DNA of 64,000 bases, taken from positions 128,001 through 192,000 of the forward strand of contig CAWBMV010000001.1 of the NCBI GenBank assembly GCA_963789955.1. Reading direction: 5' to 3'. How positions within the stretch are numbered: position 1 is the stretch's first letter; every line of letters begins with the position of its first letter. The translations under genes and the position numbers were made by a program. This DNA is from an uncultured Candidatus Rokubacteria bacterium (GTDB lineage: Bacteria; Methylomirabilota; Methylomirabilia; Rokubacteriales; CSP1-6). The notes beneath the pieces are model-generated. The model was given only the letters and a program-made list of their open reading frames with translations, searched no databases and was not told the origin of the DNA. This document shows, piece after piece, positions 3,180-37,047 of the stretch.

Positions 3180-4043
3180 TCAGCGCGCGAAGTTGTCGAT
3201 CAGGTAGCGCGAGATGCTGTGGCGCGAGGGGAGGCTCGGGAGGTTCGTGCACGGAAACCAGCGCGCGTCCTCCAGCTCCTCGGCGTCCACCTTGATCTCG
3301 CCGCCCGCGTAGGTGGCGACGAAGCCGACCATCAGCTGGCTCGGGAAGGGCCAGTTCTGACTGCCGACGTAGCGGATGTCCTTCACGTCGACGCCGACCT
3401 CTTCCTTCACCTCGCGCGCGACGCAGCCCTCGAGCGATTCGCCGTTGTCGACGAAGCCGGCGACGAGCGCGTAGCGGCCGGGCGCCCAGATGGCCTTGCG
3501 CGCGAGCAGCACGCGGTCGCCGTCGCGCACGACGACGATGACCGCCGGGTGCAGGTGAGGGTAGTGCTCGTACTTGCACTTCGGGCAGCGCTTGCCCCAC
3601 TCGCCGGCCAGGCGCTCGGTGGGGCCGCCGCAGCGGGGACAGAAGCCGCTCGTCGATTCCCACCAGAGGGCCTGCATGGCCATGCCGCCGAGCGAGAGCA
3701 GATCGTCGGGCAGACGCGTGCCGGCCATCGGCACGAGCGTCTCGCGCTGGAATTCGTCCGGGACGGCGGCATCGCGCGGGAGCGACGCCACCCAGCATTC
3801 GGTGTCACCGCCCAGGGTGCCGAGCCAGATCGGCTCGCCGAGGGCGCCGTCGAGCTTGGCCGGGCGCTGACCCGACGGGAGCCGGAAGCGGTCGCCGTCC
3901 GGAACGACCAGGAGCTTCTGATCCTGGACGATGATCCAGTTGCCGCGCTCGGTCGGCGGCTTCGTCCCGCGCTTGGCCGGAACGAAGGCTCCGCGGAGGC
4001 AGTCGATATTGAACGGCAGATAGACGCTGAGTGGAGTCGTCAT
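3180..4043 (-). CDS. nudC: NAD(H) pyrophosphatase / NAD-cap decapping Nudix hydrolase
   Basis: CPRC/CPKC zinc ribbon, Nudix box AGFVDNGESLEGCVAREVKEEVG, SQNWPFPSQLM. Confidence 0.92.
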   Translation of the reverse strand: MTTPLSVYLPFNIDCLRGAFVPAKRGTKPPTERGNWIIVQDQKLLVVPDGDRFRLPSGQRPAKLDGALGEPIWLGTLGGDTECWVASLPRDAAVPDEFQRETLVPMAGTRLPDDLLSLGGMAMQALWWESTSGFCPRCGGPTERLAGEWGKRCPKCKYEHYPHLHPAVIVVVRDGDRVLLARKAIWAPGRYALVAGFVDNGESLEGCVAREVKEEVGVDVKDIRYVGSQNWPFPSQLMVGFVATYAGGEIKVDAEELEDARWFPCTNLPSLPSRHSISRYLIDNFAR

Positions 4044-5182
4044 GAGCCGAGAAGTCCCACGTCGCCGGGCTGGCCGGCGCGCGAGGCCACCGGCACGCGG
4101 TCGCCGGCCGGCGCCTCGACGCCGAGCTTCTTGAGGGCGGGCATGACCTCGCGGGCGAAGAGGCGCATGTTGGCCTCGGCGTCCTCGTACGGCATGCCGG
4201 CGTAGCTGAAGACGCCGATGTAGTGGCTGTTGTTCGTTCGCGCGTGGATGTCGAGGATCTTCTCGTAGCACTGCTCGGGCGTGCCCCAGACTTGAAGGTT
4301 CATGAAGTAGTCGACGACGGTGTCGGTCCCGTACTGCGTGATCTTCTCCGCCATCTTGCCGTAGTACTCGTAGCCCTTCGTCCGGGCGAGGTGATCGCCC
4401 TGGAACTGATAGTGATCGAGCACCGTCTGGTAGTAGCCGCCGATGAACCGTCGCGCCATCTCCTCGGCGCGCGCCGCGCTCTCGTCGCAGAACGTCCAGC
4501 CCGCCGAGACCGGCGGCGGCGCCTCGACGCCGTTCACGTCGCGGTAGATCGAGCGGTAGGTCTCGAGCTCTCGCGCGACTTCCTTCCAGGGCTTCTGCGG
4601 AATGATCAGGATCCCGACGCCGAGCTTCGCCATGATCGGCAGCGACTCCGGCGAGACCGCGGCGGCATAGGTGCGGCCGCGGAACGATTTGAAGGGCGCG
4701 GGCCGGATCGCGGCGCGTGGCTGCTTGACGAAGGTGCCGTCGTACTCGCAGTAGCCGGTCTCGAGACCGCCCAGCAGCATCTCGGCTGATTCGGTGAAGC
4801 GCTGGCGCGACTCGTCCATCGAGAGGCGGAAGCCGTCGAACTCGACCTTGCCGGCGCCGCGCCCGAGGCCCAGGATCAGCCGGCCGCCCGAGATGTTGTC
4901 GAGCATCGAGACTTCCTCGGCGACGCGCATCGGATCGTGCCACGGCAGCACCACGACCATCGAGCCCAGCCGCGCGCGCTCCGTGCGGCCGGCCATGTAC
5001 GTCAGGAATTGCAGCACGTCCGGGCACATCGTGTAGTCGGTGAAGTGATGCTCGACGCCCCAGATCGACTCGAAGCCGAGCGGCTCGGCGAGGTCGGCCA
5101 GCCGGAGCTCGTTTCGATAGACGTCGCGGTCGGTTCGCGCCTTGCCGGGGTTCTGGAACACGGCCGCCATTCCAACGTGCAT
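4040..5182 (-). CDS. Luciferase-like (LLM) flavin-dependent monooxygenase
   Basis: GFESIWGVEHHFTDY, PMRVAEEVSMLDNISGGRLILGLGRG; stop overlaps nudC start. Confidence 0.9.
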   Translation of the reverse strand: MHVGMAAVFQNPGKARTDRDVYRNELRLADLAEPLGFESIWGVEHHFTDYTMCPDVLQFLTYMAGRTERARLGSMVVVLPWHDPMRVAEEVSMLDNISGGRLILGLGRGAGKVEFDGFRLSMDESRQRFTESAEMLLGGLETGYCEYDGTFVKQPRAAIRPAPFKSFRGRTYAAAVSPESLPIMAKLGVGILIIPQKPWKEVARELETYRSIYRDVNGVEAPPPVSAGWTFCDESAARAEEMARRFIGGYYQTVLDHYQFQGDHLARTKGYEYYGKMAEKITQYGTDTVVDYFMNLQVWGTPEQCYEKILDIHARTNNSHYIGVFSYAGMPYEDAEANMRLFAREVMPALKKLGVEAPAGDRVPVASRAGQPGDVGLLGS

Positions 5183-30660: not shown

Positions 30661-32562
30661 CTACTTCTTCGGGTAACCCCGCGTGCCGAGCGCCTCGGTG
30701 ATCTCGGCGAGAATCACCGGGTCGTCGATCGTCGCCGGCGCGACGTACTCCTGGCCGTCGGCGATCTTCTTCATCGTCCCGCGCAGGATCTTGCCCGAGC
30801 GCGTCTTCGGGAGCCGCTTGACCACGAGCGCGGTCTTGAACGAGGCGACCGGACCGATGCGCTCGCGAACCTTCTCGACCAGCTCCCGGACGATCTCGCC
30901 CTCGTCGCGCGCGACTCCGGCCTTGGTGACGACGAAGCCGACGGGCACCTCGCCCTTGATCTCGTCCGCGACGCCGACGACCGCGCACTCGGCCACGTCG
31001 GGATGGCCGGCCAGCACCTCTTCCATCGCGCCGGTCGAGAGGCGATGTCCGGCGACGTTGATGATGTCGTCCACCCGACTCATGATGTAGACGTAGCCGT
31101 CCGAGTCCTTGTAGCCCGCGTCGCCGGTCAGATAGTGGCCGGGATGCTTCGCGAGATAGGACTTCTCGTACCCGGCGTCGTTGTTCCACAGGGTCGGCAG
31201 GCATCCCGGGGGCAGCGGCAGGCGGATGGCCACCGAGCCGATCTGGCCCGCGGGCATCTCCTGGTTGTCCTCACCGAGCACGCGGACGTCGTAGCCCGAG
31301 ACCGGTTTCGTGGGCGAGCCCGGCTTCACCGGGAGCATGCCGAGGCCGACGCAGTTCGCCGCGATGGGCCACGCCGTTTCCGTCTGCCACCAGTGATCGA
31401 CCACGGGCACGTGGAGCCGATCCTCGGCCCAGTGGAGCGTGTCGGGGTCGCAGCGCTCGCCGGCGAGGAACAAGGTGCGGAACCGCGCGAGGTCGTACTT
31501 CGTCATGTACGTCCCTCGAGGGTCTTCCTTCTTGATCGCGCGAAACGCCGTCGGCGCCGTGAAGAGCGCGTTCACGCCGTGGTCGGCGATGACGCGCCAG
31601 AACGCGCCGGGATCCGGTGTGCCCACCGGCTTGCCCTCGTAGAGGATCGTGGTGCAGCCCTTCAGCAGCGGCGCGTAGACGATGTACGAGTGGCCGACGA
31701 CCCAGCCGATGTCCGAGGCGGCCCAGAACGTTTCCCCGGCTCCCATGCCGTAGACGGCGTTCATCGACCACTTGAGCGCGACGGCGTGACCGCCGTTGTC
31801 GTGCACGACACCCTTGGGGATTCCCGTGGTGCCCGACGTGTACAGGATGTAGAGGGGATCCGTGGCGAGGACCGGCACGCAGTCGACGGGGGCCGCGGCG
31901 GCCAGCGCCTCGTTCCAGTCGAGGTCGCGCCCGCGGACCATCGGCGCGGCCTCCTGCGGCCGCTGCAAGATCACGCAGCGCGTGACCTTGTGCTGCGCCA
32001 GCTCGATCGCGCCGTCGAGCAGCGGCTTGTAGGGAATGACGCGATTGACCTCGATGCCGCAGGACGCCGAGAGAATGGCCTTCGGCTTGGCGTCGTCGAT
32101 CCGCTTGGCCAGCTCGTTCGAGGCAAAGCCGCCGAAGACCACGGAGTGAATCGCGCCCAGGCGCGCGCACGCGAGCATCGCGATCACGGCCTCGGGCACC
32201 ATCGGCATGTAGATGATCACGCGGTCGCCCTTCTCGATCCCCAGACGCCGGAGCATGCCGGCGCAGAGCGCGACCGCGTCGCGAAGCTCGAAATAGGTGT
32301 ACGTCCGCACCGTGCCGGTGACCGGGCTGTCGTAGACCAGCGCCCGCTGCTTGCCACGGCCGCGGTCGACGTGCACGTCGACCGCGTTGTAGCAGGTGTT
32401 GAGCTCGCCACCCACGAACCACCGGTAGAACGGACGGCGCGAGTCGTCGAACACTCGATCCCACCGCCGGTCCCAGTGGATGTCTTCCGCGGCCGCGGCC
32501 CAGAACCCCTGGGGGTCCCGCATCGACCGCGCGTATGTCTCGTCGTAGACACTCTTGGTCAT
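30661..32562 (-). CDS. prpE: Propionyl-CoA/acyl-CoA synthetase
   Basis: YTSGTTGIPKG, ASDIGWVVGHSY, LAGERCD, DHWWQTE, LPKTRSGKILR. Confidence 0.88.
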   Translation of the reverse strand: MTKSVYDETYARSMRDPQGFWAAAAEDIHWDRRWDRVFDDSRRPFYRWFVGGELNTCYNAVDVHVDRGRGKQRALVYDSPVTGTVRTYTYFELRDAVALCAGMLRRLGIEKGDRVIIYMPMVPEAVIAMLACARLGAIHSVVFGGFASNELAKRIDDAKPKAILSASCGIEVNRVIPYKPLLDGAIELAQHKVTRCVILQRPQEAAPMVRGRDLDWNEALAAAAPVDCVPVLATDPLYILYTSGTTGIPKGVVHDNGGHAVALKWSMNAVYGMGAGETFWAASDIGWVVGHSYIVYAPLLKGCTTILYEGKPVGTPDPGAFWRVIADHGVNALFTAPTAFRAIKKEDPRGTYMTKYDLARFRTLFLAGERCDPDTLHWAEDRLHVPVVDHWWQTETAWPIAANCVGLGMLPVKPGSPTKPVSGYDVRVLGEDNQEMPAGQIGSVAIRLPLPPGCLPTLWNNDAGYEKSYLAKHPGHYLTGDAGYKDSDGYVYIMSRVDDIINVAGHRLSTGAMEEVLAGHPDVAECAVVGVADEIKGEVPVGFVVTKAGVARDEGEIVRELVEKVRERIGPVASFKTALVVKRLPKTRSGKILRGTMKKIADGQEYVAPATIDDPVILAEITEALGTRGYPKK

Positions 32563-32643
32563 TGGTTGAGTCCTCCTGCGATTCGCCCCCGGGCGCCCGG
32601 GAACGTTAGCACGGCCGGCGCTCGGGCCGCCACCGGCTACCTC

Positions 32644-32673
32644 TTGACAATCTCGATCGACAATGTGTATTTT
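32644..32673 (+). promoter_or_regulatory. Sigma70-type promoter
   Basis: TTGACA-N18-TATTTT in a locally AT-rich patch, overlapped by an imperfect inverted repeat ATCTCGATCGA...TCGATTCGAGAT. Confidence 0.6.
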
Positions 32674-32687
32674 GCCATCGATTCGAG

Positions 32688-32894
32688 ATGACTACGCAGG
32701 TCGAGCACGCGACGTCGCTCCGTTGCCCGGTGTGCCGGGCAAAGGTCGTGGTGGCGCTCCAGGATGAGGTCGTCATCCACAACGCCATCATCAAGGTCGA
32801 CTTTCCCACCGGGCGCGTGACGGCCAAGTGTGCGCGATGTAAAGCGTGGGTGCAGGTTCCACTGCGGTACATCGGAGACGTGACTCCCTCGTAG
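32688..32894 (+). CDS. Small C4 zinc-ribbon protein (68 aa), tentatively Mu Com-like
   Basis: LRCPVC-x31-CARCK; sits directly behind the promoter. Confidence 0.7.
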   Translation: MTTQVEHATSLRCPVCRAKVVVALQDEVVIHNAIIKVDFPTGRVTAKCARCKAWVQVPLRYIGDVTPS

Positions 32895-32918
32895 GCGACG
32901 TCGAAACCAAAAGACATG

Positions 32919-32965
32919 GGCCGGGAGGAGGGCCGACGCGAGGCCCGCCTCCCGGCCTTTTGTTT
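32919..32965 (+). terminator. Terminator/attenuator-like hairpin between the zinc-ribbon gene and sulfite reductase
   Basis: GGCCGGGAGG-A-GGGCC-GACGCGA-GGCCC-G-CCTCCCGGCC followed by TTTTGTTT, then GGAGG RBS at 32968. Confidence 0.7.
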
Positions 32966-32977
32966 CTGGAGGCACTG

Positions 32978-34675
32978 ATGAGCGAAACCGTGAAAGAGAC
33001 GAAGGCACAGCGGGTCGAGCGGCTCAAGCGTGAGCTGAATCCGTGGGAGGCCTATGCCGACATCCAGCGGTTCGCGCGCGAAGGCTGGGACTCCGTGCCC
33101 CCGGAGTGGTTCGGCGCGTATTTCCGCTGGTGGGGCATCTACACGCAGGGCGACGGCGTCGGCGCGATCGGCGGCAAGGGCGGCGAGGGCAAGGCGGTTC
33201 GCCATCTGATGGTGCGGATCCGCATTCCGAACGGTGTTCTCGACTCACGTCAGCTCCGGACGATCGCCGACCTCGCCGAGTGGCACGGACGCGGGATCGC
33301 CGACATCACGGTCCGCCAGAACTTTCAGCTGCACTGGGTGACGCTCGAGAGCCTGCCGGAGGTGTTCCAGGCGCTCTGGCTCAAGGACGTCACCACGATG
33401 GGCTCGTGCGGCGACGTCACGCGCAACGTCACCGGTTGCCCGGTCGCGGGACTCGACGCCGAGGAGCTGGTCGACGCCTCGCCGCTCGTCCGGGAGGCGA
33501 CGGAGCTGGTGAACGGGAACGCCGCCTTCTACAACCTACCGAGAAAGTTCAAGGTCTCCATCTCGGGATGCCGTGCCTGGTGCACGTATCCCGAGGTCAA
33601 CGACATCGGTCTCACGGCGGTTCGCCACCCGGCGAGCGGCGAGATCGGCTTCGCCGTGCGCGTCGGGGGCGGGCTCTCGACCGACCCGCACCTCGGCGTC
33701 AAGCTCGACGCGTTCGTGCCGCGCGCTCAGGCGCTCGGAGTATTCCGGGCGATCGCCGAGATCTTCCGCGACTCCGACGTGCTCCGTCAGAACCGCGAGC
33801 GCGCCCGTCTGAAGTTCCTGTTCCTCCAGCACGGCTGGACGGCCGAGCGCTTCAAAGCCGAGATCGAGGCGCGCCTGGGCGCTCCGCTGGCGCCGGGCGT
33901 TCCCGACGACCCGCCCGACGACGCGTACCGCGACCACGTCGGCATCCACGCGCAGCAGCAGCCGGGCTACTGCTACGTCGGCGTCGCCGTGTTGCGCGGG
34001 CGCCTCACGGCGGACCAGATGCGGGTCGCCGCCGAGCTCGCCGATCGCTACGGCTCCGGCGCGGTCCGGACGACGAGCATGCAGAACTTCCTGATCCCGA
34101 ACGTTCGCCGCGAGAGCGCTCAGGCACTGGCGCGCGAGCTCGAGGGCGCCGGCTTCGCGATCGATGCCTCGCCCTTTCGCCGCGGCACCGTCGCCTGCAC
34201 GGGCTCAGAGTTCTGCAAGCTGGCGCTCACCGAGACCAAGGGCTTCGCGCGCGGGCTCGTCGAGAGCCTTGAGCAACGGCTGCCGGGGTTCGACCAGCAG
34301 CTTCGGATCAACGTCACGGGCTGCCCGAACAGCTGCGGTCAGCACTGGATCGCCGACCTCGGGATCGAGGGCAAGAAGGTCAAGGTGGACGGCGTGGTCG
34401 TCGACGCCTACTACTTCTGCGTCGGGGGCGCCGTCGGCCGGCATCAGGCCGTTGCCCGGCCGATCGGGCTGCGTCTGCCGGCGACCGGGGTGGCGCCGGC
34501 GATCGAGCGCCTGCTGCGCGCCTTCCAGGCCGAGCGACGAGACGACGAGAACTTCCGCCAGTTCGCCGCCCGTCACACCGACGAGGAGCTGCGCGGCCTG
34601 CTCGCCGGCGAGCTCGTCGAGGCCGTGGCGCGCGATGCCGCCGCGGACCGACCGCCGCACGGCGTCGACGGCTGA
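32978..34675 (+). CDS. sir: Siroheme nitrite/sulfite reductase (ferredoxin-type)
   Basis: WWGIYTQG, ITVRQNFQLH, NLPRKFK, ACTGSEFCKLA..TGCPNSCG siroheme/4Fe-4S Cys. Confidence 0.88.
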   Translation: MSETVKETKAQRVERLKRELNPWEAYADIQRFAREGWDSVPPEWFGAYFRWWGIYTQGDGVGAIGGKGGEGKAVRHLMVRIRIPNGVLDSRQLRTIADLAEWHGRGIADITVRQNFQLHWVTLESLPEVFQALWLKDVTTMGSCGDVTRNVTGCPVAGLDAEELVDASPLVREATELVNGNAAFYNLPRKFKVSISGCRAWCTYPEVNDIGLTAVRHPASGEIGFAVRVGGGLSTDPHLGVKLDAFVPRAQALGVFRAIAEIFRDSDVLRQNRERARLKFLFLQHGWTAERFKAEIEARLGAPLAPGVPDDPPDDAYRDHVGIHAQQQPGYCYVGVAVLRGRLTADQMRVAAELADRYGSGAVRTTSMQNFLIPNVRRESAQALARELEGAGFAIDASPFRRGTVACTGSEFCKLALTETKGFARGLVESLEQRLPGFDQQLRINVTGCPNSCGQHWIADLGIEGKKVKVDGVVVDAYYFCVGGAVGRHQAVARPIGLRLPATGVAPAIERLLRAFQAERRDDENFRQFAARHTDEELRGLLAGELVEAVARDAAADRPPHGVDG

Positions 34676-34676
34676 G

Positions 34677-35306
34677 ATGGGCTACTACCCGGTGCTTCTC
34701 GACCTCGCGGGCCGCCGATGCGTCATGGTCGGCGGGGGCATCATCGCCGGGCGACGAGTCGACGGCCTGTTGACGGCGGGCGCGCGCGTGACGGGGATCA
34801 GCCCTCGGTTGACGCGGACCCTGGCGGCGCTGGCCGCCGAGGGTCGCATCGAGCACGAAGCACGCGAGTATCGCGACGGCGATCTCGACGGGGCGGATCT
34901 CGCGTTCGTCGCGACCGATGCGGGCGCGGTGAACGCGGCGGTGGCCCGGGAGGCGCGGGCGCGCGGCGTCTGGATCAACGCCGCCGACGATCCGGCGCGC
35001 TGCACGTTCATCCTGCCGGCGCTCGTTCGCCGCGGCGATCTCACCGTCGCCATCGCGACCGGCGGCTCGAGCCCCGCCCTCGCGCGCGCGATCCGCGAGG
35101 AGCTCGAGACCTACCTGACCGATGACTACGCGACCCTGGCGGCGATCGCGGCCGAGGCCCGGCGCGAAGTGCGGGCGTTGGGACGGCCGGTGGCCGCCGA
35201 CGCCTGGCGGCGCGCGCTCGGCCCGGAAGTTCGACGGCTCATCGTCGAACGGGGCCGCGACGATGCCAAGCAGCGTTTGCTCGAGCTGCTCGGAGTGGAC
35301 TCGTGA
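34677..35306 (+). CDS. Precorrin-2 dehydrogenase/sirohydrochlorin ferrochelatase (CysG N-terminal, Met8p-like)
   Basis: YYPVLLDLAGRRCVMVGGG, NAADDPARCTFILPA, ATGGSSPALAR. Confidence 0.9.
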   Translation: MGYYPVLLDLAGRRCVMVGGGIIAGRRVDGLLTAGARVTGISPRLTRTLAALAAEGRIEHEAREYRDGDLDGADLAFVATDAGAVNAAVAREARARGVWINAADDPARCTFILPALVRRGDLTVAIATGGSSPALARAIREELETYLTDDYATLAAIAAEARREVRALGRPVAADAWRRALGPEVRRLIVERGRDDAKQRLLELLGVDS

Positions 35307-36076
35307 AAGCCGGCACGGTCGCCCTCGTCGGCGCGGGCCCGGGAGATCCCGGCCTCATGACGGTGCGCGGTCTCGAGCTCCTGCGGCGCGCGCACGTCGT
35401 CGTCTACGATCGGCTGGTCGATCCGCGGCTGCTCGACGAAGCGCCGCGCGCGCGGCGCATCTTCGCGGGCAAGGCGTCCGGCAACCACGCGTTGCCGCAA
35501 GAGTGGATCAACGCGCTCCTGATCCTGCACGCGCGGCGCGGCCGGCGGGTCGTGCGGCTCAAGGGGGGCGACCCGTTCGTGTTCGGGCGCGGCGGCGAAG
35601 AGGCCGAGGCGCTGGCGCGCGCGCGGATCCCGTTCGAGGTCGTCCCCGGCGTCAGCTCGGCGGTCGCCGTGCCGGCGTACGCCGGAATTCCCGTCACCCA
35701 TCGCGGCGTCGCGTCCTCGTTCACGGTGGTCACGGGCCACGCGAGCGCATCAGGACGCGAGTCGAAGGTCGACTGGGCGCGGCTCGCACGCTCGGCCGAC
35801 ACGCTGGTGGTCTTGATGGGGGTGGAGAGCCTTCCCCGGATCACGCGCGAGCTGATCGCGCACGGACGCCCCGCGACGACGCCGGTCGCGCTGGTGCGCT
35901 GGGGGACCACGAGCGCCCAGGAGACGGTCACGGGCACCCTCAGGGATATCGCCGCCCGCGCCGCCAGAGCTCGGCTCGAGCCCCCGGTCGTGATCGTGAT
36001 CGGCGACGTGGTCGCGCTCCGCGACCGGCTCCAGTGGTTCGACGACAACCGTATTGCTATGGAGGTCGCTCAGTGA
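35303..36076 (+). CDS. cobA: Uroporphyrinogen-III C-methyltransferase
   Basis: VGAGPGDPGLMT, RLKGGDPFVFGRGGEE, GIPVTHRG. Confidence 0.95.
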   Translation: MKAGTVALVGAGPGDPGLMTVRGLELLRRAHVVVYDRLVDPRLLDEAPRARRIFAGKASGNHALPQEWINALLILHARRGRRVVRLKGGDPFVFGRGGEEAEALARARIPFEVVPGVSSAVAVPAYAGIPVTHRGVASSFTVVTGHASASGRESKVDWARLARSADTLVVLMGVESLPRITRELIAHGRPATTPVALVRWGTTSAQETVTGTLRDIAARAARARLEPPVVIVIGDVVALRDRLQWFDDNRIAMEVAQ

Positions 36077-37047
36077 ACGTTCGACTGTCCGCGCCCATCG
36101 GCATCCTCGACGAGCATCCGGAGTGGTCGGCCAGGCTCATCGCCGAGCTCGAGCATCGGCGGCTGCCGTTCGAGAAGATCGACCACTCGAACCACGGCTT
36201 CGACCCGCGCGATCGGGTCCCGCGCTATTCGGTCATCGTCAATCGCACGAGTCCCTCGTCGCACCGGCGCGGCCACGGCGGCGTCCTCTTCTACGCCGAG
36301 GCGCTGCTCGCGCACTGGGAGTCGCTCGGGGTGCCGGTCATCAATCCGGTTCGCGCCTATCGCTTCGAGAAATCCAAGGCGCTCCAGCTCGGTCTCTTCG
36401 AGCGTCTGGGCATCAACTATCCGCGGACGGTCGTCGTGAACCACCGCGACCAGGTCTTGAAGGCGAGCGCCGAGCTTCGATTCCCGCTCCTCGTCAAGCC
36501 GAACATCGGCGGCTCGGGCGCGCTCATCGAGCGATTCGAAACACGCGCGGACCTCGAGTCGAGGGCGGCCGCGCTCGACTTCGGCCCGGACGGAACGGCG
36601 CTGGTGCAGGAGTTCATCGAGTCCCAGGACGGTGCGATCGTTCGGGTCGAGGTGCTGGACGACCGGTATCTGTACGCGATCCGAATCGTCCGCCCGGCAT
36701 CCGATTTCAATCTCTGCCCGGCCGACATCTGTCGGGTGCCCGATGCCGCGCCGAGCGCCGAGCTCGGCGCGTGCCCGGTCGAGGCCAAGCCGGGGCTCCA
36801 GGTGACGCGCTATGACGCCCCGGCGGCCGTGGTCGACCAGGCCCGAGCCCTCGCGCGCGGGGCGTCGATCGACGTCGGCGGAATCGAATATCTCGTCGGG
36901 CGCGAGGACGGCCGCGTCTATTTCTACGACGTGAATGCCACGTCGAACTTCGTCGCCAACGCCCCGGCGGTGCTCGGGTTCGACCCGTTTCCGCCGTTCG
37001 CGGACTACATCGTCCGCGTGGCGACCCAGGCCGGAGACCGCGCATGA
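36073..37047 (+). CDS. RimK/glutathione-synthetase-like ATP-grasp ligase
   Basis: FPLLVKPNIGGSG, LVQEFI, GGIEYL..FYDVNATSNF; GTGA overlap with cobA. Confidence 0.8.
   Translation: MNVRLSAPIGILDEHPEWSARLIAELEHRRLPFEKIDHSNHGFDPRDRVPRYSVIVNRTSPSSHRRGHGGVLFYAEALLAHWESLGVPVINPVRAYRFEKSKALQLGLFERLGINYPRTVVVNHRDQVLKASAELRFPLLVKPNIGGSGALIERFETRADLESRAAALDFGPDGTALVQEFIESQDGAIVRVEVLDDRYLYAIRIVRPASDFNLCPADICRVPDAAPSAELGACPVEAKPGLQVTRYDAPAAVVDQARALARGASIDVGGIEYLVGREDGRVYFYDVNATSNFVANAPAVLGFDPFPPFADYIVRVATQAGDRA

Follow-up and report, generated by a model that had tools for sequence, protein, structure and literature searches.

A candidate leader cassette of a zinc-ribbon gene and a conserved RNA hairpin precedes sulfur assimilation genes in Rokubacteriales

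Introduction

Cysteine operons of mycobacteria are attenuated by leaderless polycysteine small open reading frames (sORFs), namely Ms5788A, Rv0815A, and Rv2334A, and ribosomes that stall on their Cys codons keep a very stable structure from masking the Shine-Dalgarno (SD) sequence of the next gene, as described in the preprint by Canestrari et al. (bioRxiv 10.1101/834739). In this study, we analyzed the leader of a sulfite reductase (sir) operon in an uncultured Candidatus Rokubacteria bacterium (assembly GCA_963789955.1), which lies within a 64,000-nucleotide stretch of contig CAWBMV010000001.1 (hereafter the window, in whose coordinates all positions are given unless a locus or genome is named). 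This leader, in which a promoter, a 68-amino-acid (aa) zinc-ribbon open reading frame (ORF), and an RNA element ending in a GC-rich hairpin succeed one another, appears to be a conserved cis-regulatory cassette for sulfur assimilation in Rokubacteriales. The mycobacterial polycysteine sORFs are its closest tested precedent, and the cassette could act as a cysteine-responsive leader or attenuator whose sensor is the translation of the upstream Cys-codon ORF, a reading that we hold at slightly below an even chance. The original prediction for this leader had taken it for a sulfur-controlling protein/RNA switch resembling that of phage Mu Com. The leader and the gene that follows it comprise the following features.

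32644..32673, plus strand: sigma-70-type promoter TTGACA-N18-TATTTT, a promoter-like site with 10 of 12 matches
32688..32894, plus strand: 68-aa four-Cys zinc-ribbon ORF, CPVC-x31-CARC (translation, LRCPVC...KCARCK), the putative upstream translated ORF of the leader
32829..32840, plus strand: second zinc knuckle, TGT GCG CGA TGT (Cys48 and Cys51), as read from the sequence, TGT being a rare codon
32893..32916, plus strand: 5' sequence of the RNA element, GGC-N3-5-GUCG then AAGAC, invariant or nearly so in the columns of alignments A2 and A5
32918..32958, plus strand: long GC hairpin whose base (GCCG/CGGC) is invariant and whose interior covaries, from folding and alignment A5
32958..32965, plus strand: U-rich tail TTTTGTTT, a terminator-like site, with AGACA as alternative pairing partner
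32968..32980, plus strand: SD sequence GGAGG (32968-32972) and ATG of the sulfite reductase (32978), as read from the sequence
32978..34675, plus strand: NirA/Sir-type ferredoxin sulfite (or nitrite) reductase, the presumed first regulated gene (Pfam NIR_SIR and NIR_SIR_ferr)

The cassette resembles the mycobacterial sORFs in that a Cys-codon ORF, apparently translated and in many cases likely leaderless, lies before sulfur or cysteine genes with a very stable structure by the downstream ribosome-binding site (RBS); CCC or CCCPGCC peptides are encoded in three Rokubacteria genomes, and consecutive Cys codons occur in loci L066, L067, and L070. It differs, however, in belonging to another phylum and in mostly encoding a folded zinc-ribbon protein of 60 to 68 aa with separated Cys codons (none consecutive in the window ORF), while its Cys codons are unpaired with the SD region and its structure is a self-contained terminator-like hairpin of conserved sequence. 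With classical attenuators (trp, his, leu, and thr) it shares a terminator-like hairpin with a U tract that separates the leader ORF from the first structural gene, but no antiterminator pairing was found here, the ORF is long and its protein product conserved, and the last Cys codon lies about 80 nucleotides (nt) away. Riboswitches and the cis-regulatory leaders of Rfam likewise combine a conserved RNA with a terminator-like hairpin abutting the RBS of biosynthetic genes, whereas the element described here has no Rfam match and its conserved part before the hairpin is very short. To our knowledge, no cysteine riboswitch is known, and in the literature searched, leader-ORF control of cysteine genes has been demonstrated for mycobacteria only. 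A literature search for cysteine leader peptides together with sulfite reductase returned the mycobacterial work only, one for Methylomirabilota together with riboswitch returned nothing, and we found neither this RNA element nor a folded zinc-ribbon gene in the place of a leader ORF in Rfam or in the literature searched.

Conservation and portability of the leader cassette

Comparison of 33 related loci from species-representative genomes revealed that a Sir homologue (64 to 94% identity) directly follows the ORF in 32 of them, the exception (L034) being a distant homologue in a gammaproteobacterial Mu-like prophage. The ORF, the hairpin, and their relative placement are found again in dozens of genomes, well beyond what chance would give. 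The ORF and the reductase gene are separated by a spacer of 83 to 111 nt in 29 of the 32 Sir loci, and this spacer carries the hairpin, with a tail ending a few bases before the SD sequence; in L010, L011, and L013, the ORF-sir spacing is just 14 to 28 nt and the hairpin is absent there. A TTGACA box with CGAT in its spacer precedes most related leaders, and conservation of the promoter spacer extends well past both hexamers as TTGACAAT-NN-CGATCGACAAT, a near direct repeat. The promoter at 32644-32673, which the original prediction had already pointed out, is the only promoter-like site in 32000-35500 (3.5 kb; shuffles give 0.1), and this interval contains no such site past the hairpin, in agreement with the absence of a separate sir promoter on which that prediction depended. 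No further copies of the promoter box were detected in the own genome with up to 3 mismatches allowed. The conserved promoter spacer (32644-32673) could also serve an unknown transcription factor as an operator.

The cassette is portable, and the genes after it are mostly sulfur or thiol genes. Besides sir, it precedes cysH in L010, L011, L078, and L116 (genome G154 being among the cysH cases), sirC in L113 (G151), a 1-Cys peroxiredoxin gene in L069 (G019), and, directly, the ATP-grasp gene of the operon in G115 (L047:1562-2593). In six genomes of a sister family (genus g40; L073, L074, L075, L077, L079, and L082), it precedes a 163-aa beta-carbonic-anhydrase (beta-CA)-family gene, which is followed by a luciferase-like monooxygenase gene in L074 and L082. 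The beta-CA-like gene, we assume, might encode a COS/CS2-hydrolase-type enzyme for sulfur limitation, and a family search of three of these beta-CA-locus genomes found no NIR_SIR domain. Four genomes (G108, G138, G150, and G019; 95 to 100% complete) have kept the zinc-ribbon ORF and the RNA with no NIR_SIR domain at all.

Because the ORF, the hairpin, and the sulfur operon form a conserved unit and there is no room downstream of the hairpin for a separate sir promoter, we consider promoter, ORF, and RNA to make up a leader cassette, conserved in Rokubacteriales, that regulates sulfur assimilation genes in cis. The original prediction of a leader for the sir-siroheme operon holds in that a conserved regulatory leader for sulfur genes is present, while the leader is not a Com system and the mechanism proposed for it is probably wrong.

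Some individual copies deserve mention in their own right. A second small hairpin (GGCUCC..GGAGCC) lies between the cassette and the beta-CA-like gene in all six genus-g40 loci. The RNA model finds a full-length match on either strand of one hairpin in G115 (L047:1501-1643), with 72.9 bits forward and 44.7 bits reverse. Locus L114 (G206:C27:65345-66412) appears to be a decaying copy, in which the promoter and a poly-Cys ORF are deleted, the RNA is kept, and the downstream sir frame looks broken.

Structure and conservation of the RNA element

The hairpin at 32918-32958 has 16 pairs, one A/G mismatch, and the loop GACGCGA and is followed by TTTTGTTT, matching the GC hairpin and U tail that had been predicted ahead of the GGAGG RBS. 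The 101-nt leader stretch folds at -49 kcal/mol (z = -4.4), which was equalled by 0 of 200 shuffles. In the minimum free energy (MFE) fold, AGACA (32912-16) pairs with UGUUU and CCA (32907-09) with UGG of the RBS region, so the extension of the stem by 32907-16 over the U tract into the RBS, also predicted, is seen in this fold.

Thirty leaders (alignment A2) have in common AAGGC-N3-5-GUCG.AG and AAGAC, upstream of a hairpin whose invariant base, (A)GCCG...CGGC(U), leads into a U-rich stretch. The distance from the ORF stop to the stem base is 26 to 27 nt in the 68-aa forms, in which the 5' sequence of the element overlaps the ORF stop codon, or about 38 to 57 nt, and GGC..GUCG/AAGAC is kept whether it is coding or noncoding, also without a zinc-ribbon ORF ahead of it. 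The stem interior varies between genomes yet remains paired, and the hairpin loops are not conserved. Since MAFFT and RNAalifold recovered from A2 only five pairs, all at the stem base, with an interior that could not be aligned by sequence, a covariance model and its alignment (A5; 58 instances) were used, the latter being fitted to the model and so biased towards its structure. In A5, 78.6% of the cells pair versus 71.2% in shuffles, a level reached by 0 of 500 shuffles; both-side changes occur in 19 of 24 pairs, including 12 of 16 in the main helix (at pair 68-113, for instance, 32 rows have GC and 24 have AU), and controls in which the 3' partner was slid scored much lower. We regard the leader RNA as a selected structure, as the pattern of these substitutions suggests. 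T occupies at least five of the eight positions that follow CGGC in 36 of 57 leaders. Others (e.g., L015, L018, L024, and L076) have lost the U run but retain the 5'-flank pairing (GACGAGAG with CUCUCGU); the long helix, and not the terminator tail alone, is therefore under selection.

The element belongs to no Rfam family (best match Chloroflexi-1, 19.6 bits versus a gathering score of 80, E 0.29) and is single-copy in its own genome. Of 151 genomes sampled from the phylum, 46 carry it, and in the family sample 56 of 151 do; both counts include G058, which is flagged as unpublished. The motif GGC..GUCG was also considered as a sigma-54 promoter or DNA operator and was rejected by eye, its spacing varying by 3 to 5 nt.

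Separate occurrence of the RNA element and the zinc-ribbon gene

Among the 151 phylum genomes, the RNA and the zinc-ribbon gene occur together in 37, the RNA alone in 9, and the gene alone in 7. A strong RNA match with no zinc-ribbon gene anywhere (E<=0.001) was obtained for G040, G100, G033, G106, G127, G043, and G068, which are 84 to 100% complete and retain the invariant RNA positions, and the place of the zinc-ribbon gene is taken in five of them by a short ORF containing two to five Cys codons. The same promoter drives MKQVMISVAQHFCCCPAGDRGAF, MKKAVVSRRAHRCCCPGCCPGAPQAF, or MKKATGRALEHRCCCPGAA in G033, G127, and G106, with the ATG a few bases past the -10 box, and all 11 Cys codons of these three ORFs are TGT. 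The short replacement ORFs hold three to five Cys in 11 to 26 codons, an example being an MKK..CCCPG peptide that is likely leaderless. Truncated remnants of 23 to 28 aa keep the second knuckle, and in some of them RY.G near the stop has become RCLG. The 28-codon ORF of G040, G100, and G193 keeps this knuckle and has acquired an extra Cys codon two positions upstream of the stop, and further truncated forms occur in G068 and G197 (G193 and G197 come from the 151-genome family sample). In L010 and L011, where the RNA lies ahead of cysH or cysH-sat, it has its own promoter copy and an 11-codon ORF (MLHSCPGELPS and MRCSCIGRCPG), while the zinc-ribbon gene stays directly before sir.

Five of the seven gene-only genomes were inspected, leaving out G047 (unpublished) and G107 (weak match). 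The hairpin is wholly or half lost in G035 (L092, on the same contig as L013), G031 (L093), and G065 (L095); it is present on inspection in G049 and G014, where strict filters had missed it.

Cysteine codons and start of the leader ORF

In 48 unique zinc-ribbon ORFs, TGT is used 8 times for Cys1, once for Cys2, 26 times for Cys3, and 31 times for Cys4, against a background of 46 of 683 Cys codons (6.7%) in the Sir ORFs of the same loci. The two C-terminal cysteines thus have TGT in 54 to 65% of sequences, including the window (32829-31 and 32838-40); the sequences being related, this excess is a bias and not a formal test. An in-frame start lies 31 to 41 nt after the TTGACA box (peak 35) in 31 of the 53 zinc-ribbon ORFs that have such a box, a distance that fits a leaderless mRNA; the window ORF starts 44 nt from its -35 box. 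Elsewhere in the genome, the only mildly suggestive poly-Cys candidate is a short ORF, VMQMSCCRCSKTRGSIPLPMET (G000 C37:85385-85453, minus strand), which has a TTGACA-like box upstream and is followed by a gene starting with a four-Cys ribbon, MEKLNGLRCRECGRHY...

The zinc-ribbon protein and its comparison with phage Mu Com

The ORF with LRCPVC..KCARCK that had been predicted is present at 32688-32894, and the conservation of its product indicates a real gene. It has 94 homologue clusters (60 to 96% identity), and a search of 1.84 billion proteins yielded 95 representatives at E<=1e-3. Where relatives of the ORF or the locus carry a name, they are Candidatus Rokuibacteriota/Methylomirabilota metagenome-assembled genomes (MAGs). 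It is single-copy in its own genome. Homologues keep the four Cys and a KC.RCK.W..VPL block, and the median ratio of nonsynonymous to synonymous substitution rates (dN/dS) was 0.27 over 43 equal-length cores, with 0.45 in the N-terminal half and 0.18 in the C-terminal half. An AF2 model shows a six-strand all-beta zinc ribbon (pLDDT 80.6). Pfam and NCBIfam gave no family above cut-off for the protein; a Foldseek search of the PDB with the model gave nothing at E<=0.001, its top rows being generic zinc ribbons (Elf1, NrdR, and Rpp21), and a wide fold search with VIA-align reached a best Z of 3.4 with no informative structural neighbour, while an ESM Atlas search with homologue P0011 returned unnamed clusters only. 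The predicted complex of the protein with Sir, run without controls, scored 0.49, 0.23, and 0.00 against a mark of 0.32.

The protein also resembles Zn_ribbon_LysW of Pfam below threshold (16 bits versus a cut-off of 27, E 0.0095). Membership among LysW-type carrier proteins was not supported, given a match under the cut-off and the lack of an acidic tail ending in Glu: the C terminus is RY.G or ..TPS, and most short forms end in Gly. The ATP-grasp gene in the operon and in G115, together with the subthreshold LysW resemblance and the Gly at the C terminus of the short forms, hints at a relation to carrier proteins. Purifying selection on the whole protein, and its retention at loci without the hairpin, make it probable that the protein also has a role of its own.

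With respect to phage Mu, the overall arrangement is alike: in both com-mom and the window, a small (62 to 68 aa) four-Cys zinc-ribbon gene is followed by an RNA hairpin and then by the regulated gene, with the hairpin near the start region. However, similarity at the level of sequence or profile ends with one CxxCK knuckle. Taking Mu Com from AF083977 (IRCKNC..IRCPRCK) as reference, the Cys spacing is C-x2-C-x31-C-x2-C here versus C-x2-C-x16-C-x2-C in Com, the longer spacing having been noted from the start. The 68-aa protein was unmatched by PF10122 (Zn_ribbon_Com) at E<=0.1, for which the positive control Mu Com gave 2.7e-9, and by the Com PHROGs (13819 and 6417), for which it gave 4.6e-45; PF10122 matched 0 of 43 scanned family representatives. 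An hhalign comparison of alignment A1 with Mu Com yielded a probability of 37% over 13 columns, covering the second CxxCK knuckle only.

The GAG-NN-CC motif that the original prediction had given for Com agrees with the published selection (systematic evolution of ligands by exponential enrichment [SELEX] motif NGAGNNCC(N)2-3GAGNNCCNN; PMC6483171), and both words of the window were where they had been reported (GAGGGCC, 32928-34; GAGGCCC, 32940-46). Across the 57 leaders, however, the tandem pair occurs in the window only (1/57), a pair with the 2- to 3-nt spacing of the SELEX motif in 0/57, and a single copy in 14/57. What recurs among homologues is the association with sulfur genes and the covarying hairpin, and not the GAG-NN-CC hairpin. 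Moreover, the hairpin does not depend on the four-Cys protein, since the seven genomes named above keep a strong RNA without the gene and cysH hairpins occur without a zinc-ribbon gene upstream. On the strength of the model searches, the motif counts, and the RNA-only genomes, Com homology and a Com-type site were removed from the interpretation; a trans role for the zinc-ribbon protein is possible, although the RNA does not require the protein.

The distant homologue in L034 (positions 3977-4165; Gammaproteobacteria MAG contig JAJFJV010000013.1) is a 62-aa zinc-ribbon protein of 41% identity, KCRCKAWVPVPLRY, encoded in the head module of a Mu-like prophage, where it is flanked by a head-morphogenesis gene and the gene of a Mu-like prophage protein I/protease; it has no match to the Com models. 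More distant members of the zinc-ribbon family come from low-GC sources, and a search of viral contigs with a phage-like distant homologue gave one weak locus.

The sulfite reductase operon and its transcription

The remaining genes around the leader were assigned by family matches.

34677..35306, plus strand: precorrin-2 dehydrogenase/ferrochelatase, CysG N-terminal type (siroheme)
35303..36076, plus strand: uroporphyrinogen-III methyltransferase (siroheme)
36112..37047, plus strand: RimK/LysX-family ATP-grasp ligase, which closes the operon in closer relatives
30661..32562, divergent, upstream of the leader: propionate/acetate-CoA ligase homologue

The best NCBIfam matches of the reductase are to the NirA family, under their cut-offs. 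Siroheme genes come after sir wherever the locus is long enough to show them, and cysH and sat are neighbours of the reductase gene in relatives; because of the siroheme genes here and these neighbours in relatives, sulfite is favoured as the substrate. Long open frames at 34718-35125, 35122-36100, and 36054-36815 overlap the siroheme and ATP-grasp genes in other frames, have no family matches, and appear to be high-GC artefacts.

Contigs from soil and sediment RNA libraries cover the leader. One (run X1; 296 nt, 10 differences) spans 32695-32990 and thereby takes in the ORF and the hairpin as well as 12 nt of sir, and another (run X2) bridges 32822-33133 into sir with 15 differences and represents a relative. 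These contigs hint at transcription of the region and at the existence of read-through molecules; they show neither ends nor strand, DNA carry-over is possible, and the gap at 32991-33031 of X1 is uninformative.

Discussion

In the reading that we prefer, a strong promoter would drive a small, often apparently leaderless Cys-codon ORF, which in the window is the 68-aa zinc-ribbon gene. About 26 to 57 nt past its stop codon, the conserved RNA element would end in the very stable terminator-like hairpin, and the speed of the ribosome over rare UGU Cys codons near the end of the ORF would set transcription or translation into sir-sirC-cobA, such that cysteine supply would tune attenuation at the leader. 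We place the sensor in the translation of the upstream ORF, a reading held at slightly below an even chance; the link between ribosome and structure was not found. In its favour stand the position of the ORF ahead of sir, the covarying RNA, the portability of the cassette among sulfur and thiol genes, the short Cys-codon ORFs that stand in for the protein gene, the TGT bias, the start distances, the mycobacterial precedent, and, weakly, the RNA-library contigs.

Several results weigh against it. Pairing of the upstream 96 nt with the 5' arm of the hairpin, as an antiterminator would form, was no better than shuffled in 57 leaders (duplex z from -1.9 to +2.5, centred slightly above 0). Nor did the Cys-codon region pair with the SD flank (mean z 0.16, 0/56 under -2), and the 5' motif gave a mean z of -0.24 with that flank (3/56 under -2). 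The window ORF has four Cys in 68 codons, none of them consecutive, and its last Cys codon lies about 80 nt before the hairpin; its dN/dS of 0.27 over the whole ORF denotes selection at the protein level, unneeded by a pure leader peptide. The RNA is kept without a Cys ORF in L076, ahead of sir and right after the promoter (G043 has only M-D-stop there), and in L078 (MILPKSI), ahead of cysH, while the zinc-ribbon gene occurs without a hairpin directly after it in L010, L011, L013/L092, L093, and L095. Two crude scans of the own genome, covering first 756 raw candidates and later 38 intergenic-like ones, turned up no further convincing poly-Cys leader ORF. A cysteine response and termination at 32965 are what we infer for the leader.

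Some of these results would fit an RNA element that is itself the sensor, as a small riboswitch or as the target of another protein or small RNA (sRNA) that stabilizes or opens the hairpin, with the ORF as an add-on. The approximately 20 invariant nucleotides outside and at the stem base, the persistence of the element without a Cys ORF directly after the promoter in L076 and L078 and in genomes without the zinc-ribbon gene, and the classic riboswitch layout with a terminator adjoining the RBS all point in this direction, but we consider it unlikely: only about 25 nt are conserved upstream of the hairpin and no local fold fits all variants, the GGC/GUC mini-stem needs 2-nt loops in the group of the window and meets uncompensated changes in three genomes, Rfam has no match and the loops are not conserved, and Cys-codon ORFs and the TGT bias would go unexplained. 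A simpler possibility is that there is no switch at all, the hairpin being a leaky terminator, an insulator, or an mRNA-stabilizing stem, and sulfur control being exerted only at the promoter by an unknown transcription factor. The unusually conserved promoter spacer (CGATCGACAAT, a near repeat of TTGACAAT), the lack of an alternative RNA pairing, and the RNA-library contigs that bridge the hairpin into sir are in line with this, and yet it is distinctly unlikely in our judgment, given that an invariant stem base and flanking sequence are not preserved in ordinary terminators at 64 to 70% neighbour-protein identity, that the element is also a 5' untranslated region (UTR) with no preceding gene to terminate in L076 and L078, that flank pairing is kept where the U tract is lost, and that Cys-rich replacement ORFs would have no place in it.

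The protein could instead be the active partner. A switch working like Com, in which the zinc-ribbon protein attaches to its own mRNA at the hairpin or the conserved 5' sequence and its Cys4/Zn site reports sulfur, zinc, or redox status to set downstream termination or translation, would account for a gene order as in com-mom, for purifying selection on the protein, for the joint occurrence of ORF and RNA before different genes (in four genomes without NIR_SIR; both in 37/151 genomes), and for an invariant GCCG/CGGC base and GGC..GUCG that resemble a recognition site more than a generic terminator. It is nevertheless improbable, for Com homology is lacking and the GAG-NN-CC pair is confined to 1/57 leaders, seven genomes have a strong RNA with its invariant positions kept and no zinc-ribbon gene, the replacement by short Cys-rich ORFs in place is not predicted by a trans-acting protein, and the zinc-ribbon fold is a generic one that matched nothing informative. 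More remote still is the idea that the protein is an accessory of the sulfur pathway, either a Sir partner or a LysW-like or sulfur-carrier substrate of the ATP-grasp ligase, with an unrelated hairpin. Tight sir adjacency (including the 14- to 28-nt spacing without hairpin), the weak Zn_ribbon_LysW similarity (E 0.0095, under cut-off), the LysX/RimK-family ATP-grasp gene in the operon and directly after ORF and RNA in G115, and the Gly at the end of most short forms favour a carrier or partner, whereas the gene is kept in G108, G138, G150, and G019 without an NIR_SIR protein, the acidic tail of LysW is lacking, and the ATP-grasp gene is missing from most distant loci that reach far enough downstream; we regard it as very improbable. 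A joint version of our preferred reading and the trans-acting protein, to which we give only a slim chance, is that the zinc-ribbon gene doubles as the sensory leader ORF of the attenuator while its product binds the stem base and GGC..GUCG. Sulfur would then be read twice, in cis by UGU decoding and in trans by the Cys4/Zn site, and the short poly-Cys peptides would be stripped-down descendants. If true, sulfur assimilation would be under a chromosomal protein-RNA switch that is Com-like but unrelated to Com.

The cassette is a candidate for a second leader-ORF cysteine control system, here in an uncultivated soil lineage. It comes with a natural series of variants, from the full zinc-ribbon gene through a truncated ORF and a poly-Cys peptide to no ORF, no hairpin, or no sulfite reductase, which is close to a mutational analysis carried out by evolution itself and makes it testable whether the upstream ORF contributes its translation or its protein. 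The element may serve as an annotation marker for sulfur-starvation genes in Rokubacteriales, and the cassette suggests a route by which a protein-coding gene and a leader peptide could be converted into each other.

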